From: an uncultured Methanoregulaceae archaeon
Lineage (GTDB): Archaea; Halobacteriota; Methanomicrobia; Methanomicrobiales; Methanospirillaceae
Length of the DNA: 64,000 bases
NCBI GenBank assembly: GCA_963705255.1
Contig: OY970061.1
Coordinates: forward strand, 32,001-96,000
Direction of reading: 5' to 3'
Part shown: piece after piece, positions 2,590 to 57,225 of the stretch
How positions within the stretch are numbered: position 1 is the first letter of the stretch
How the letters are laid out: each line of letters opens with the position of its first letter
Notes under the pieces: model-generated
Told to the model about the DNA's origin: nothing
Database searches by the model: none
The model's input: only the letters and a program-made list of their open reading frames with translations
Position numbers and translations under genes: made by a program

Positions 2590-2862
2590 TCATCAGGAAA
2601 TGGTCGTTATTTATTATAAAGAGCATCTTTTTTTAGGTGGATAAAATAACCCAGTGTTCGTTCCGGATTCTGTTGCATCTGCGGGACGTTTAAATAGTGA
2701 ATATTGATGGGTTACGACGATATCATTTCCATTAGGTCTCGTTAACGCAATAGCACCTTCATGAGAAAGAGTTAGATTGGTCAACGCGCGATTCAGATAC
2801 TTCTTATTCTTGAAGTTATACTTTAGATTGATTCAAAATTTTACGATAAAAAAGAGGTCAAA

Positions 2863-4041
2863 ATGTCAAATCAAGACATTCTCTATGAATTATGGATTAG
2901 TAAATACAAGCATTGTGATTCTATAACTCTTGGTCAAATAGAAGACTTTGCAATAGAGAACCGGCCCTCATTGAAATCATGGGATCGAAAAGTTATCCCA
3001 ACTTTCAGTGGCTTAAATTACGCAGTCTTGAAGTTTATCCTTGAATATTGTTCTCCAGTGAATTGGCCGGATGGATTATGGGACGAATTTCAGCAGGCAG
3101 CACATCCAAAAAAAAGTAAATATTTGATATGGCGAAAATACCCAACGCTTACAGTTAATATCAATAATGTAAAAAATACAAGGGTTTTGGAAAAATCATC
3201 AAGAACATCGATGATAACGTCAGATGCAACTATTCAAAAAACCGATAGTGTAGTATCTATTAAAGAGACTGACGATTTGCGCAGATTCACTGAATATATA
3301 GTAGCCAAAATTGACCTGATCGAATGCTCTGCTGGTACGGGTTGGACCGCACTTCTTTCAACATATCAATGGCCACCGGGTAAAGGGAGTTACGCTTCAG
3401 GAATTGAGATTCGGAGGCACTTCCATTTTCTTGTTAATGATGCATCTGAAGCAAAAGGGAAAGGAGCAAAGACATACCGCCAAGGAATATTCAACGCTAT
3501 TTCCGGATGGGCTGGAATTAAGGATAAATTTGGTGATGAAGATAGCAACCAAATTTTTTCAACTGTTAAATATCTAAAAAGGGTTTCAAGACAAAACGAA
3601 ATCGATATTAGCCAAATCTTTGATAGGAGAATTTCAACAACATCAAAGATTTACTACTTTAGTGATCCCTTGAACTGGACTATCTACGATTCTCGTGTAG
3701 CTTTTGCACTTTGCAACCTCGCCAATCTTTTCAAACACGATGATCTTGCAACATATTCACGTCTTGGTTCTATGATTCAGTTTCCAGTACCGAGAAACGA
3801 TCAAGAAAGAGAAAATCCTGATATTCCATGGAGTAATCGTTTAGCTGCAGCGTCGTTTGTCCGTGCGAGTTTCATTCTTCGAAACATAACAACAATTTTG
3901 AATGCGCGTCGGGTTTCACCACCTCAAATCGGGATCTTTTCATCCAATTCATGGGAATTATATCACGTGGAAATGGTGCTATTCATAATTGGGAAGGATT
4001 GTGGAATTATCACGAATAATACGACGAAAAGCGTTGAATAA
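2863..4041 (+). CDS. AT-rich hypothetical protein, C-terminal HhH-GPD/OGG-glycosylase-like motif
   Basis: 392-aa ORF with GAGGT RBS, visibly AT-rich. Motif TSKIYYF..P..WTIYDSRVAFAL. Confidence 0.7.
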   Translation: MSNQDILYELWISKYKHCDSITLGQIEDFAIENRPSLKSWDRKVIPTFSGLNYAVLKFILEYCSPVNWPDGLWDEFQQAAHPKKSKYLIWRKYPTLTVNINNVKNTRVLEKSSRTSMITSDATIQKTDSVVSIKETDDLRRFTEYIVAKIDLIECSAGTGWTALLSTYQWPPGKGSYASGIEIRRHFHFLVNDASEAKGKGAKTYRQGIFNAISGWAGIKDKFGDEDSNQIFSTVKYLKRVSRQNEIDISQIFDRRISTTSKIYYFSDPLNWTIYDSRVAFALCNLANLFKHDDLATYSRLGSMIQFPVPRNDQERENPDIPWSNRLAAASFVRASFILRNITTILNARRVSPPQIGIFSSNSWELYHVEMVLFIIGKDCGIITNNTTKSVE

Positions 4042-4130
4042 TGTCAACAGCTAACAAGTGAGAATTTTGCTGATTAATTCACCTGATTCGAGGCTTGTAT
4101 TTATTATTAGCATACCCATATTGGTACCAG

Positions 4131-11548: not shown

Positions 11549-11928
11549 GGCTTTGTAGAGATCCTATTTTATCCTGTAATTTGATTATATTCTCCGCTGG
11601 TTATGAGGGTGACCCCCTCTCTCCCCCACTGGGGGAGGCAGCGAAAGTCTGACGACCTTCTCGATTTCGTAGTCTGATGACTACTCAATCAGCCCAAGGG
11701 GGGTATCCCCTTGAATCTCTGAGAGGTCTTCAGACCTCGAAGAGGAGAAGGGAGGCAAGAGCCGACCTTCGACCCGTCTATTATTCCTCTCCTTATCTCA
11801 GTGGTTTTTCATCAACCTTCTGAGGGGCTATCGCAATATGGGGGGCCCCGGCGGCGGGGGGGTGGAGGCATCAGATGCCGCAGCCCCCAAGAGCGTCTGC
11901 AATGAAAACCAATGATTTCTGCAGAGCC
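11549..11928 (+). mobile_element. MITE-like repeat family A, copy A1 (short form, imperfect TIRs)
   Basis: Left end GGCTTTGTAGAGATC; right end reverse complement GGCTCTGCAGAAATC; poly-A flanks. Core is near-identical to 16240-16440 (reverse) and 43272-43430. Confidence 0.8.
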
Positions 11929-15413: not shown

Positions 15414-16060
15414 ATGGGCGAGCGCAGACCTGAGGCCCCGGAAAAAGCCACGCGGCCGTCCTGACCGGCCCCCCGTTCTACCTCCCGGAATTCGAGGAGT
15501 CGTACCGGTACATTATCGATGAGTATGACATTGGCCCCCGGGACATTGCCATTTTTATTCCCTGTGCGGTCCGGAAACCCTACAGCCAGAGCCCGAGCCA
15601 CCAGCTGATCCGGATGATCATATCGCAGGTCCTCGAACCGTCACAATACCATATCGTCGTTTTCGGGACATGCGGGATCGTCCCTGCCGAGCTTGAGGAG
15701 ATGTACCCGTATGCCCATTACAGGTACATGCTCGGGAAATGCCAGGACGAATCGGTGAAGGAGGACTTCCTCAGGATCGAGACCGAACGGGTTGCGGGCT
15801 ATCTCGAAAAGACCCGGCATACCTATACCTACCGCATCGCGTACTGTATCGGGCTCTTCCGCGAGGCGCTGGTCCGGGGGTCAAGGAAAGCAGGGGTCGA
15901 TATCGATCTCCTCCTTCCCAGCCGGGACATGATCAACCGGATCATCGAGGAGGAGGAGTGCGCGTTCCAGGAGGGCAACCTCTCCATGGAAGATTACCTG
16001 GGGGAGTTCTGCGACGGGCTCATCCGGTTCCGGAATGATCACTATGGGATGGGGAAGTGA
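15414..16060 (+). CDS. DUF5591/archaeosine-synthase-like domain protein (frameshift in A-run ~15445)
   Basis: Manual translation upstream of the 15614 ORF gives IFIPCAVRKPYSQSPSH, then GIVPAELE..YP..HY. Confidence 0.75.
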
Positions 16061-16085
16061 GAGGGGGGTCCGGCAGATCAATATT

Positions 16086-16700
16086 CTGACGCTCTTGGGG
16101 ATGTCGACATGACAAAGTCATGGAGACAAGAGAAGAACGCATAAGCGTTCTTCGAATTTTCTGCAACCTGGGCACAGCGAAGATGCTCTCGAATCTTCTC
16201 GAGCCTGCCATGCCTTTGGCGATGGCAGCATCCCCCGAATTGCGATAGTCACTCAGAAGGTTGGCAGGAAATTCTTGAGAGAATGAGAGGAATAATAGAC
16301 GGGTCGAAGGTCGGCTCTTGCCTCCCTTCTCCTCTCCGAGGTCTGAAGACCTCTCAGAGATTCAAGGGGATACCCCCCTTGGGCTGATTGAGTGGTCATC
16401 AGATCACGAAATCGAGAAGATGCGTTAGCATCTTCGCTGCCCCCCCCTTCGGAGGAGACTGCTCTTCCCGAAGGGAAGAACAGGCTGGAGAATGTCGAAA
16501 GTCATCAGACTTGAGACAGGAGAAGACCGTAGGTCTTCGATCGAACTCGTCAGAGTTCTTCGATCTCCGAAGAGGTTCAACAGGACCTCGAGGATAAGAA
16601 GAACTCATCAGAGTTCTTCGATGTGAGAGAGAGGGGGTCACCCTCATGACATCTTCAAATGGTTTACAAAAAATGAACCGTGGAAGATTTCCACAGAGCA
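16086..16700 (-). mobile_element. MITE-like repeat family A, copy A2 (expanded with hairpin arrays)
   Basis: Reverse complement of the A1 scaffold. TIR-like TGCTCTGTGGAAATC at 16686-16700. Extra hairpin arrays at ~16100-16220 and 16455-16626. Confidence 0.8.
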
Positions 16701-16707
16701 GAAACCC

Positions 16708-17457
16708 TCACTCCTCCTCTCCCTCATCCTGCCCGGCCTTCTCCCCGATATCCCGGTCGAGACTCGACGGATCGATGTGCCACTCGCTCCTGCGGAGCAG
16801 CCCGTGCAGGGTGCTGGCCTCCCGGATCGTGAGGTTCGCCCTCCCGAGGATCCTGCGGATGAGGACCATCGTGTTCTCCCGCTTGAATGCCGGGTGATGG
16901 ATGGTGTCGAGATACCGGTCGATGTGGCGGTAGAGGTAACCCATCTCGGCAGGGGAAGCGAGCGCATAGGACGGGAGCGGGAGATCGGCCAGCTCGTAGC
17001 AGACGACCCCAACGGCATGAGAGAGGTTGAGGATCGGGTACTTCTCAGTAGTCGGGATGGTGCAGATCATGTCGCTGCGTTTGACCTCCTCGTTGCTGAG
17101 CCCCCAGTTCTCGCGTCCGAAGAGAATGGAGATGCGCCCGTCGGTATCCTTGATCCGCCCGCGGAGTTCTTTTGGCGAGTAGAATGGCATCCGCATGGAA
17201 TGGCAGACCGATTTGCTCACGGTCCCGGTGGTCGCGACCACGATGTTACTCCGGGCGAAGACGTCTTCGACGGTGCAGACCTCTGCATTCCTGAGCACGT
17301 CCTGCGCATGACTGGCCCGGGCCTTAGCCTCCTCGCCAAGCGGGCATGGATCGATGAGCACGAGCCGCAGGAACCCGAAATTTTTCATCACGCGTGCGGC
17401 AAAGCCCACGTTGCCTTCGTAGATGGGGGCAACGAGCACGATGTCAATGACGGGCAT
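16708..17457 (-). CDS. trmJ: tRNA methyltransferase, TrmJ/SpoU family
   Basis: GNVGFAARVMKNFG, FGRENWGLSNEE, YPILNLSHAV. Confidence 0.9.
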   Translation of the reverse strand: MPVIDIVLVAPIYEGNVGFAARVMKNFGFLRLVLIDPCPLGEEAKARASHAQDVLRNAEVCTVEDVFARSNIVVATTGTVSKSVCHSMRMPFYSPKELRGRIKDTDGRISILFGRENWGLSNEEVKRSDMICTIPTTEKYPILNLSHAVGVVCYELADLPLPSYALASPAEMGYLYRHIDRYLDTIHHPAFKRENTMVLIRRILGRANLTIREASTLHGLLRRSEWHIDPSSLDRDIGEKAGQDEGEEE

Positions 17458-31956: not shown

Positions 31957-32035
31957 GGTCGTGAAAAAATGCGGTTATTTCCAATGTTGTCCCGTCTCGG
32001 CCGGGGATGATGGTTCCGGGCCCTGCCACAAAAAA

Positions 32036-34884: not shown

Positions 34885-35120
34885 GGCTCTGGAGAAATGG
34901 ATGTGAACCAATCGGGTTCACGCTGAAACCATGAATTCGCTAAAATAGTCACATTGGGAGGGCCCCCCGCCTCAGGGCCTCTCCGAGGCACGGCGGGGCA
35001 AGGATATTTTTAGTCACTGATCCGCCGCGGGGGCGCCCCGCCGGGGGCGGCGGCGTTTATCATACTTGTGATGAAGAGGTAGCAACCTTATCAAATCTGA
35101 ATAATATGATTTTCATAAAA
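34885..35120 (+). mobile_element. MITE-like repeat family B, copy B1 (empty scaffold)
   Basis: Starts GGCTCTGGAGAAAT. Scaffold CCCCGCCTCAGGGCCTCTCCGAGGCACGGCGGGGCAAGG..GATCCGCCGCGGGGGCG is shared with 37949 and 56762. Confidence 0.78.
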
Positions 35121-35257
35121 AAAGTCAAAAACAACGTCCGGATGCTCTCGTCCGGCGATGACCCCGAACCTATCCTTTAAGTAATTCCAAACAATATATA
35201 ATTCATACCTATGATCAGGCATTACATCCATCGCATGATACATGGGGGTGCGTTTAC

Positions 35258-36487
35258 TTGTATTCACCGGATACTACCAAGTACCTTATTCACATCAGCC
35301 TCGCCGCAGAGGGGGTGGTCGAGAAACCCGACGTAGTCGGTGCCATATTCGGGCAGACTGAAGGGTTACTCGGCGAAGACCTCGACCTGCGGGATCTCCA
35401 GCGGACAGGGCGTGTGGGCAGAATCGACGTCCAGATTACGAGCAAGAAGGGCGAGACGAAGGGGGAGATCCTGATCTCCACCTCGCTCGACCGGGCAGAG
35501 ACGGCTATCCTTGCCGCATCGCTCGAGACGATCGACCGTGTCGGTCCCTGCGTAGCCCACGTGACCGTGGACTCGGTTGAGGACATAAGGGTTTCCAAGC
35601 GGAAGAAGATCGTCGAGCGGGCCAAGGAGATCCTGATCGACCGGTTTGATGACGGGACCATAGACAGCGACGAGCTGCTTGACGATGTCCGGCAGACCCT
35701 CCGGATAGAGAAGATCGGGTCCATCGGCGAAGAGCGGGCACCGGCCGGCCCGAACGTCCTCGAGTCAGACGCCATCATCATTGTCGAGGGAAGGGCGGAT
35801 GTCCTGAACCTGCTGAGGTATGGCATCAAGAACGCTGTTGCCGTGGAAGGGACCAACATCCCCAAGAGCGTCGTGGAGCTCTGCGAAAAGAAGACCACGA
35901 CCGCGTTCTTTGACGGGGACCGGGGTGGCGAGCTGATCCTCCGGGAACTCCTGCAGGTGGCTGATATCGATTTTGTCGCGTTTTCCCCGAAGGGCAAGAG
36001 TGTCGAGGACATGACCCGGAAGGAGGTCATCAAGACGCTCCGGAACAAGGTCCCCGTCGAATATGTCCGCGACCAGTACTTCGAGACCTCGGCCGAACTC
36101 CCGGGCGATCTCCGGACAACGCGTCCGTCCCTTGAAGATGAGGACGCCCACGAGCGGAAACGGCAGCCTGCAGGGGCCCGTCGCCCGCGTGACACATCGG
36201 GCGGCCCGCTGAGCCTCAGGGAACACATCGAAGACGTGAAAGGGCAGAACCTGGCACGTTTTCTCTCCGATGACCTGTCCGTGGTCAAAGAGTTGCGGTC
36301 AGACGAGGTGGAAAAAGCCATCGAGACGATCGATACTACGGCGACCGGGCTCGTCGTCGACCGTCCCGTGGACCAGAAATTCCTCGACCGCCTGGTCTGG
36401 AAAGGCCTCTCCTATGTTGCGGCAAAGGATTTCAAGGGGATCATCAAGCGCCCCACGGCAATCCGCCTGCTGAAGATGGGGTCGTGA
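35258..36487 (+). CDS. dnaG: Archaeal DnaG-like primase (exosome-associated)
   Basis: [38 protein letters not shown]. Confidence 0.95.
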
Positions 36488-37948: not shown

Positions 37949-38455
37949 TGCTCTGGAGAAACGGACATGAACCAATAACGTTCACTCCGGAACCATGAAA
38001 ATTGTTCAGTTACGAGAGCTCCCCGCCTCAGGGCCTCTCCGAAGAGTCAATCGTCGCGTCAGCGAGGATTGACTGGAGAAGAATCCTCATGGATTCTTCG
38101 ACTGCTTCATCCTGTACGGATGAAGCAGAGGAAGTTTGGAAAAACTTCCTCTTGCCGAGTCTCGGGAAAGATGAGGCACGGCGGGCAAGGAAGTTGATCC
38201 GCCGCGGGGGCGAGTCGAAAATTATCTATCCGAGAATTTTCTTCAGCCAGCCCCGACCATCTGGTCATGGCTGGCTCCCCGTTGAGGGCAGCGCCGAAGG
38301 CTGTGGAGAAGTGATAACTTCGAGTTCCGAAGAGGTTCATCGGAACCTAGAGGATGAAAAGAACTCGTCAGAGTTCTTCGAGTGCGGCGGCGTTCATCGC
38401 AATGGTAAAAGAGTGACAATCCGCCGTGAGATCTGAATAATACGATTTTCATAGA
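37949..38455 (+). mobile_element. MITE-like repeat family B, copy B2 (three filled slots)
   Basis: B1 scaffold interrupted by hairpin arrays at 38043-38174, ~38213-38276 and ~38290-38385. Confidence 0.8.
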
Positions 38456-43070: not shown

Positions 43071-43465
43071 TTATGAGTGTGACCCCATCTCTCATGTCGA
43101 AGAACCCTGATGAGTTCTTCTTATCCTTTGGTCCTGATGAACCTCTTCGAAAATCGGAGAGGTTTCTCAAAACCTCGACGAGGAGAAGGGAGGCGTGAGC
43201 CGACCTTCGACGTGATCGAAGAACCTGCCATTCTTCTTCAGCCTGCTCTTCCCTTCAAGAACAGCAGTCTCCCCAGTGGGGGAGGCAGCGAAGATGCTAA
43301 CGCATCTTCTCGATTTCGTGATCAGATGACCACTCAATCAGCCCAAGGGGAGCATCCCCTTGAATCTCTGAGAGGTCTTCAGACCTCGAAGAGGAGAAGG
43401 GAGGCAAGAGCCGACCTTCGACCCCTCTTTTTATCCCCCTTCTTTTCAAAAGATTTTTGCTTCAA
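43071..43465 (+). mobile_element. MITE-like repeat family A, copy A3 (expanded, ends truncated)
   Basis: A1 scaffold with a 178-bp hairpin array at 43094-43271. Confidence 0.8.
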
Positions 43466-56707: not shown

Positions 56708-56761
56708 CTGGTTAAGACCTGAGCAAGACTGGGTGAGGACGGGAAAAATTACTAATTAAAC

Positions 56762-57225
56762 ATTATGAGGGTTCCCCGCCTCAGGGCCTCTCCGAGGAGT
56801 CAATCGTCGCGCCAGCGAGGATTGACTGGAGAAGAATCCGCAAGGATTCTTCGACTTGCTTCATCCTGTACGGATGAAGCAGAGGAAGTTTGGAAAAACT
56901 TCCTCTTGCTGAATCTTGTAAAAGATGAGGCACGGCGGGGCAAGGAAGTTGAACCGCCGCTGGGTTAAGTTGAAAATTCTCTGTCAGAGAATTTTCTTCA
57001 GCCCGCCCTGACTATCGGGTCACGGCTGGCATCCCGTTGGGGATAATCCCACGAATGCATACTCCTCGGGAAAGTAATACAGCACTATCCCTGAGCGCAG
57101 GGAAGGTCGGGCGACATACCAGCCTGAAGGCTGGTGTGGTGCGCAGAAGATTTCCAGCGGAAATCTTCGAGGGGACAGGCACTGTCCCCTCCGTCATCAT
57201 TCATGCGTGATATTTTTTTCTAATA
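56762..57225 (+). mobile_element. MITE-like repeat family B, copy B3 (filled slots)
   Basis: Scaffold and slots 1-2 match B2; slot 3 (~57045-57190) holds different hairpins. Confidence 0.8.

Follow-up and report, generated by a model that had tools for sequence, protein, structure and literature searches.

The 64,000-nt window analysed here (positions 32,001 to 96,000 of contig OY970061.1, GenBank assembly GCA_963705255.1, from an uncultured Methanoregulaceae archaeon) contains members of a family of short hairpins of the form GA-GAAG-stem-loop-stem-CTTC-GA, in which non-complementary GA dinucleotides flank an otherwise perfect palindrome. The family recurs throughout the genome, obeys rules that differ between the two strands, and includes a unit of two hairpins that was inserted into unique DNA without a target duplication. 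We propose, with moderate confidence, that these hairpins are one half of non-coding mini-elements, similar to repetitive extragenic palindromic (REP) sequences or palindrome-associated transposable elements (PATEs), that spread through a folded single strand.

Enrichment and strand asymmetry of the hairpins

The outer pattern GAGAAG-N6-30-CTTCGA matched nine times in the window, compared with a mean of 0.39 (maximum 3) over 100 shuffles. The genome under study (G000, a single contig of 2,600,650 bp with 54.6% G+C) contains 270 perfect GAAG..CTTC hairpins, 74 with GA/GA flanks and 95 with TC/TC flanks, the latter class being GA/GA read on the opposite strand. Slightly wider limits yielded 176 oriented perfect GA-GAAG-stem-loop-stem-CTTC-GA hairpins (79 plus-strand and 97 minus-strand copies), whereas three genomes simulated with a third-order Markov model yielded 0, 1 and 1. 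An initial annotation of the window had named six such hairpins, all of which were found (16130-16155, 16414-16437, 16520-16540, 16598-16621, 38306-38323 and 56829-56854), as was the exception with a TCAT loop to which it had pointed (38076-38101). The GA..GA feet that it described hold in general; the copy at 16414 ends in CTTC-GC and the copy at 16598 has AA as its 5′ foot.

Unrelated stems do share one basal motif, as had been claimed from these few copies: 54 distinct stems of 6-11 bp, with loops of 3-9 nt, occur among the 176 hairpins. Tallied on the GA strand, the commonest loops are ATCA (42 of 176), GAA (25), GTCA (11), GCA (11) and GCAA (7), and TGAT, the reverse complement of ATCA, is nearly missing. 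When each of the 107 distinct types of stem plus loop was counted once, the loop ended in A in 81, began with a purine in 87 and was closed by a C-G pair in 84. The loops are therefore neither symmetric between strands nor random, and the motif is enriched across the genome rather than confined to the copies first noticed.

Among all perfect hairpins in the genome with a stem of at least 6 bp (n = 4319), GA/GA was the top flank class (302, with 90 in the runner-up class), and it also led among stems not starting with GAAG (138). That hundreds of palindromes, perfect in other respects, keep a non-complementary GA/GA suggests a constraint on the folded strand. With DNA parameters, the GA strand folds more stably than its complement in 173 of the 176 hairpins.

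A two-hairpin unit with covarying helices

Inspection of the neighbouring sequence revealed that, for 82 of the 176 hairpins, another helix stands directly upstream on the same strand. In this helix, L-GA-S-loop-S′-GA-L′, a symmetric tandem GA/GA internal loop lies between L (3-5 nt) and S (4-9 nt). The gap between this upstream helix and the GA-footed hairpin is 0 nt in 63 cases and 1-2 nt in 19, and the complete unit measures 46-58 nt (median 54). The control values for the upstream helix were 1/176 on the mirrored side and 0.14 for shuffled upstream sequence. The 82 units contain 31 distinct L/L′ pairings and 44 distinct S/S′ pairings, and the GA sites stand in a pyrimidine-GA-purine (Y-GA-R) context in 66 and 67 of the 82. 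Taken together, the strand-specific stability, the kept non-complementary GA/GA and the covariation in three helices indicate selection on one folded strand. With its ends joined, such a unit would form an unbroken rod consisting of loop, S helix, GA/AG, L helix, GA/AG, GAAG helix and loop. Hairpin-bearing units also occur in head-to-tail tandem arrays (period 49-61 nt, at most 8.3 copies), both in this genome (360010-360497, 1668309-1668628, 1212411-1212558 and 2470236-2470354) and in G046 (contigs C44, C54, C64 and C163), where G-numbers denote the genomes of a genus sample (n = 81).

Presence and absence of units in related genomes

The genome G037 shares approximately 95-96% gene identity with G000 and is syntenic with window positions 1-39446; four of the five repeat clusters in this stretch differ between the two genomes in whole modules. 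Over about 832 kb of aligned G000/G037 sequence, 42 indels of 15-450 nt were detected, nine of which bear GA-footed hairpins and one of which is the insertion of a MITE (miniature inverted-repeat transposable element).

A 55-nt unit at genome position ~1591897-1591951 was found in G000 alone. Its site is unbroken between TATCAG and AACTGA in G037, G055, G031 and G049, which indicates that the empty state is ancestral and the unit a de novo insertion. The insertion has neither a target duplication nor inverted ends, which fits a single-strand 'peel and paste' style of integration. Two convergent open reading frames (ORFs) abut at this position, and both now stop inside the unit. At the same convergent junction G058 carries a different insertion of about 376 nt (L209:1125-1501) with a MITE-like end and hairpins, and the junction may be an insertion hot spot.

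Within the genome, homologous two-hairpin units occupy non-homologous sites with empty paralogs at 622933, 867435 and 254096, one hairpin that 8-9 paralogs keep intact is split by a 50-nt unit, and identical hairpins recur in up to five flank contexts. Many blocks at repeat-internal junctions are preceded by GA and end in ..CTTCGA. Microhomology at the nine hairpin-bearing G000/G037 indels amounted to 0, 0, 0, 0, 1, 2, 3, 5 and 5 nt.

Hairpin modules and host repeats in the window

The features of the window that belong to the hairpins and their host repeats are as follows.

16066..16700, no strand: composite repeat occupying an entire intergenic region (648-nt gap)
16101..16155, plus strand: two-hairpin unit, ATGTC-GA-CATGAC-aaa-GTCATG-GA-GACAA followed by GA-GAAGAACGC-ataa-GCGTTCTTC-GA
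16304..16331, minus strand: hairpin with foot and internal tandem GA, GA-GAAGG-GA-GGC-aaga-GCC-GA-CCTTC-GA
16384..16437, plus strand: 54-nt two-hairpin block, GA-GTGGTC-atca-GATCAC-GA (one G.T pair) followed by GAGAAGATGC-gtta-GCATCTTC-GC
16488..16563, plus strand: split hairpin, GAGAA / GAACTC-gtca-GAGTTCTTC-GA, broken by a 50-nt insert at 16493-16542
16493-16542, plus strand: the 50-nt two-hairpin insert, TGTC-GA-AAGTC-atca-GACTT-GA-GACA-G-GA-GAAGACC-gta-GGTCTTC-GA-TC
16596..16621, plus strand: hairpin AA-GAAGAACTC-atca-GAGTTCTTC-GA, with AA instead of GA as 5′ foot
11549..11928, opposite orientation: second copy of the MITE family of 16066..16700, 380 nt, with a module hairpin at 11745-11772
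34886..35100, plus strand: type B host repeat with GC-rich hairpins CCCCGCC..GGCGGGG and CCGCCGC..GCGGCGG and no GA-footed modules
37950..38400, plus strand: type B repeat with module blocks in both GC-rich hairpins
43083..43436, no strand: repeat cluster whose module hairpins lie on the plus strand (43183-43210, 43394-43421) and at 43083-43127
56751..57042, plus strand: type B repeat with a module hairpin, GAGAAGAATCC-gcaa-GGATTCTTCGA, at 56829-56854

The neighbours of the region 16066..16700 are a 148-aa ORF without known family, which ends at 16060, and, on the minus strand, a gene for a SpoU-type methylase (16708-17457). The region is a copy of the MITE whose left end is degenerate and whose right inverted end lies at 16685-16699 (inverted-end match at genome 48685); it is filled with hairpin modules in both orientations, and each position from 16079 to 16675 is repeated between 2 and more than 32 times in the genome. 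The first example of the initial annotation is the second hairpin of the unit at 16101..16155; what that annotation overlooked is the larger repeats, the hairpins being modules in two-hairpin units that are themselves set within MITEs. The hairpin at 16304..16331 sits in a 188-nt block that is inverted with respect to 11657-11844. Alignment revealed that the block 16384..16437 is missing in the orthologous region of the sister genome G037, and a paralogous empty site was also found. For three other genomic copies of the 50-nt insert, unbroken GGCTGGAGAAGAACTCGTCAGA is present in 8-9 paralogs; for the window copy (16493-16542), the 50-nt form is supported by one paralog. The repeat at 37950..38400 contains GA-footed hairpins at 38076-38101, 38306-38323 and 38359-38381, and the stretch 38165-38379 is missing in G037. 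Finally, 43083-43127 is an inverted copy of 16591-16635.

Host MITEs and hairpins are separate families

The scaffold MITEs are bounded by inverted ends of 15-16 nt (near GGCTCTGTAGAAATCC), and their target duplications are AT-rich and 8 bp long, for example CGATAATC, AATTTCCA and CAGACAAC. The minimal form measures 253 nt and lacks a GA-footed hairpin, and in longer copies (349-578 nt) three fixed internal positions hold hairpin blocks, which may point either way. Type B scaffolds, with two GC-rich hairpins, carry module blocks in their loops. The type B copy at 34886-35100 is missing from the orthologous gap of the more distant relatives G049, G055 and G031, which points to insertion. A 360-nt MITE copy at G037:C1:171300, flanked by AAAATAAC/AAAATTAC, faces an empty orthologous site in G000, indicating that the MITE family has been mobile since the two genomes split. 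The orientation of MITEs relative to the next gene was unbiased (24 vs 17), and T-runs after MITE ends, considered as terminators, turned out to be the AT-rich target duplications. Two ORFs for IS6-family (DDE_Tnp_IS240) transposases occur at genome 2147365-2148549 and 2152908-2154095, with 78% DNA identity over the ORF only; no MITE-like ends were found within 350-400 nt of them. These two diverged transposases might serve the MITE, given the 8-bp duplications and similar end sequence of IS6-family elements.

Across the 81 genomes, 15 carry at least 15 pattern matches (up to 175) and the remainder 0-7, with 0-1 for the backwards control. This hairpin-rich set comprises G000, G031, G037, G058, G049, G046, G055, G043, G066, G056, G051, G002, G067, G034 and G061. 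The MITE marker is abundant in hairpin-poor genomes (54 in G007, 50 in G078, 39 in G070 and 33 in G010) and scarce in several hairpin-rich ones (3 in G058, 3 in G046 and 5 in G049). The two distributions are thus decoupled, which indicates that MITEs and hairpins are two separate families.

Beyond the genus sample, a few perfect examples were found in other families of the same order. A scan of genomes of all species returned at least 110 stretches; among the 80 listed, 72 were titled Methanoregula, Methanoregulaceae or Methanomicrobiales and 8 bore other titles. The 130 pattern matches in the 110 loci listed from other records, mostly titled Methanoregula, had an A-final loop in 101 cases and a complementary inner stem in 100. 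Viral contigs gave 0 matches to the specific hairpin pattern.

Genomic context and the proposed mode of spread

Almost all hairpins (169 of 176) lie outside gene calls, as do 256 of the 302 GA/GA-flanked hairpins described above; of these 256, 210 have a loop with A in last position and 209 have C as the closing base. Gaps between convergent genes hold 57 of the 169 hairpins and gaps between divergent genes 24. Relative to co-directional neighbouring genes, 46 hairpins are sense and 42 antisense, and both orientations occur within single MITEs and within clusters, including several tail-to-tail pairs. The even orientation towards genes and host elements fits a process run by the element itself better than a function in host transcripts; combined with independence from the MITE and with duplication-free insertion, it points to element-autonomous single-strand spread of the REP type, with its bacterial interspersed mosaic elements (BIMEs), or of the PATE type.

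Under this proposal, a single hairpin, a unit or a block of several units would be copied or moved via a folded single-stranded intermediate, and only one strand would give the stable form, with tandem sheared G.A pairs and R..A loops closed by C-G. Pasting would require neither inverted ends nor target duplication and would favour two kinds of place: existing repeats, whether MITEs or the loops and feet of hairpins already present, and sites where convergent genes end. If such events recurred while copies also recombined with one another, nested, mosaic, BIME-like regions such as 16066-16700 could result. The intermediate would be single-stranded DNA (ssDNA) rather than RNA, and a dedicated enzyme outside the Y1-HUH class would presumably exist. 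A narrower version, which we regard as possible and put forward tentatively, is that the units form an archaeal class of mini-transposon: a two-hairpin 'dumbbell' of about 54 nt with tandem G.A pairs, moving in folded single-stranded form, perhaps closed into a rod-like circle, nesting in hairpins and MITEs and served by a non-Y1 enzyme.

Evidence against single-strand spread and the search for an enzyme

A number of results weigh against this proposal. The intergenic and orientation statistics rest on a crude ORF caller of our own. A single insertion, the 55-nt unit, is polarised by outgroups; at a 37-nt indel at genome 1497236 the outgroups fail to align across the site. Much of the presence and absence inside MITE copies could reflect gene conversion or deletion instead of new insertion. 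Junctions are heterogeneous: a rule of inserting after GA and ending in GA fits one of the nine G000/G037 indels and fails at the polarised insertion, no fixed target sequence emerged, and the left flanks differ. Elements of the IS200/IS605 type are expected to show strand bias along the chromosome; here hairpin strands were mixed in every 200-kb bin and no arm bias was seen, in a genome whose GC skew is too weak to locate the origin. Nor did the enzyme searches succeed. Y1_Tnp (PF01797) had no match in six of six hairpin-rich genomes (G000, G031, G037, G058, G049 and G055), the control search having matched 6 of 14 known genomes, and G000 contains no IS110-type (DEDD) recombinase, serine recombinase/resolvase or ISL3 (DDE) transposase; with all four groups missing, there is no candidate mover in hand.

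The initial annotation had suggested recognition of a folded ssDNA hairpin, as for HUH enzymes. A strand-specific single-strand fold in place of double-stranded half-sites is supported by the variable spacing of the feet, the covarying stems, the GA..GA foot and R..A loops kept on one strand and the difference in stability between strands, and the one insertion without target duplication is in keeping with it; an HUH enzyme finds no counterpart in either the Y1_Tnp search or the distribution of orientations along the chromosome.

Other candidate movers were examined and either rejected or found to have no link to the hairpins. TnpB-like genes have no GA-footed hairpins at their ends and are present in 77 of the 81 genomes whatever the hairpin load. 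The sole reverse transcriptase of the genome (528 aa, 315961-317547, L152:742-2328, minus strand) matches DRT4/DRT6/AbiK-type defence models (E 1e-170) and was dismissed as a defence enzyme of the DRT4/DRT6 type. This gene falls in a stretch that our ORF caller passed over; two GA-footed hairpins stand just past it, at 318182 and 318938, and its locus has no Rfam match. Four genes have hairpins on both sides; none is nuclease- or transposase-like as judged by reading the sequences, without a Pfam scan.

Alternative explanations

The structural rules of the units apply to ssDNA and RNA alike, and the units might instead be structured RNA modules, acting as stabilisers or as processing or protein-binding sites in transcripts, or might spread via an RNA intermediate; we judge this unlikely. 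Covariation in three helices, tandem sheared G.A pairs in Y-GA-R context and an excess of G.T over A.C pairs (28 vs 12 in the two-hairpin units) are all typical of structured RNA, and the excess of hairpins between convergent genes is an enrichment in 3′ regions. In the GA-footed stems alone, the count of 6 G.T vs 4 A.C pairs is uninformative. With RNA parameters the GA strand is more stable by 0.78 kcal/mol on average, but it is favoured in merely 100 of the 176 hairpins and equal in 29. Moreover, the even orientation relative to genes speaks against a function in transcripts, and so does the mixed orientation within single MITE copies, as a result of which one transcript would bear many units in the weak orientation. 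The dominant loops, ATCA, GTCA and TTCA, are not stable RNA classes, and GNRA-type loops are few. The window had no Rfam match at the gathering threshold, and in 15900-16800 a search at E ≤ 1 gave only a weak match to a microRNA family at chance level (E 0.49). Spread through RNA also runs into the fact that the only reverse transcriptase is the defence enzyme described above.

Known RNA motifs with tandem G.A pairs were compared in this connection. Kink-turns and C/D boxes have sheared G.A pairs beside Watson-Crick helices, a feature shared with the units. By eye, however, the units have symmetric 2x2 G.A loops or feet, no 3-nt bulge plus helix, no C/D consensus on the GA strand and no Rfam match, and the comparison was dropped. 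A hammerhead, considered on account of CUGAUGA on the opposite strand, was likewise rejected by eye because the other required parts are missing.

It is also improbable, in our estimation, that the hairpins merely ride in MITEs and other repeats while ectopic recombination, slippage and deletion reshape them and template-switch 'palindrome correction' keeps their stems perfect, with no dedicated mechanism. Such passive spread would account for the many hairpins within MITEs that have inverted ends and 8-bp duplications, one of which is polymorphic between G000 and G037. In many of the paralog 'events', similar stems share 7-9 nt of homology, as recombination would predict, and the tandem arrays with a period of 49-61 nt indicate that slippage or unequal exchange is active. 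Against it stand the decoupling of the hairpin family from the MITE over 81 genomes and the finding that merely 43 of the 176 hairpins lie inside detected MITE end pairs. The solo 55-nt unit was inserted in unique DNA, with the empty state ancestral, and under palindrome correction the GA/GA mismatches would be lost and loop polarity would become random, yet both are kept.

The last alternative, half-sites (GAAGAA..TTCTTC) of a dimeric DNA-binding protein, either a regulator or a nucleoid protein, had been raised in the initial annotation and would explain the conserved GAAG/CTTC feet with their dyad symmetry, but it is very improbable because the spacing of the feet varies widely with stem and loop length, the inner stem bases covary across 54 stems rather than being conserved, flanks and loops are asymmetric, and hairpins are under-represented in the promoter-bearing gaps between divergent genes (24 of 169).

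Comparison with known repeat families

Single-strand spread of the hairpin units recalls REPs, BIMEs and REP doublets forming hairpins (REPINs) in several respects. Like them, the hairpins are short, high-copy (above 100; here 176) extragenic palindromes with an asymmetric conserved foot, form intergenic mosaic clusters in both orientations, are lineage-restricted and show compensatory variation; REPs, which are imperfect palindromes of 20-40 nt, are presumed to be processed in a folded single-stranded state, as proposed here. The differences are that the present host is archaeal, that two unlike hairpins, arranged in direct order and with internal loops of tandem G.A pairs, make up the usual unit, and that the RAYT/Y1 enzyme was not found in the six carrier genomes searched. 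RAYT genes are usually flanked by REPs. The foot is GA-GAAG..CTTC-GA here, whereas the available part of PMC3733652 gives the REP foot as a GTAG or CGTC tetranucleotide; archaeal REPs are not discussed in that part. In the portion of PMC4066759 at hand, the M. boonei genome is used merely as a test set.

PATEs, gene-less derivatives of IS200/IS605 elements, have reportedly been described in Haloquadratum. The IS200/IS605/PATE group resembles the present units in the lack of inverted ends and target duplication, seen here at the one polarised insertion (four of the nine G000/G037 indels having 0 nt of microhomology), in very small elements with hairpins at both ends and in the strand-specific fold; the rod that joined unit ends would form is also reminiscent of a single-strand circle intermediate. 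In contrast to that group, this genome has no TnpA (Y1), its TnpB-like genes lack the hairpins, and neither a fixed target tetra- or pentanucleotide nor a chromosome-arm bias was found. Membership of REP/BIME and PATE therefore fails on the defining enzyme and the foot sequence.

Likeness to MITEs is restricted to the host scaffold, which has terminal inverted repeats and 8-bp target duplications; the hairpin units, apart from their own stems, have neither. The pneumococcal BOX and Neisseria Correia elements are modular repeats, and BOX copies vary in module number, as do the repeats here. The units differ from MITEs, BOX and Correia elements in occurring also outside the MITE and in genomes with few MITE copies.

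A full-text search of the literature, supplements aside, on hairpins, repeats, extragenic palindromes and MITEs in Methanoregula or Methanomicrobiales brought up no account of such repeats. REP-like repeats are well known in bacteria together with the Y1 transposase, and here strand-specific, covarying and mobile hairpins occur without Y1, so that either these methanogens possess a new activity handling ssDNA (or RNA), or hairpin repeats can be spread by host functions alone. The small units, sharp structural rules and defined set of carriers make a phyletic search for the mover feasible. The units matter in practice as well: they fill whole intergenic regions and alter gene ends, as at the 55-nt insertion that gave two convergent genes new stop codons, and they are a probable cause of breaks when such environmental genomes are assembled.

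Other observations

Elsewhere in the genome, an array at ~504943-506493 with a period of 66-67 nt combines a constant part of about 32 nt, GTCACGCCCCTCGCGGGCGTGTGGATTGAAAT, with variable parts, and has the look of a clustered regularly interspaced short palindromic repeat (CRISPR) array. A 124-nt insertion relative to G037 at 1624824-1624949, whose surroundings presumably resemble 23S ribosomal RNA, could be a ribosomal RNA intron or an assembly difference.

In the window itself, a 1.48-kb AT-rich segment (2617-4098) is present in G000 and missing in G037. Direct repeats resembling TATTTATTAT flank the segment, which encodes a 392-aa ORF (2863-4041, plus strand) with which no Pfam family matched, and it is possibly a small integrated element. 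Pfam matches in the window include a form-III-like RuBisCO and a methanogen output domain, which help to place the genome within or close to Methanoregula. Upstream of a gene for a Toprim-domain (DnaG-like) protein, at 35150-35260, the stretch AACCTTAACTTTAAGTAATTCC..TTATATATA is conserved in G000, G037, G049, G055 and G031 and is probably the promoter region of that gene.

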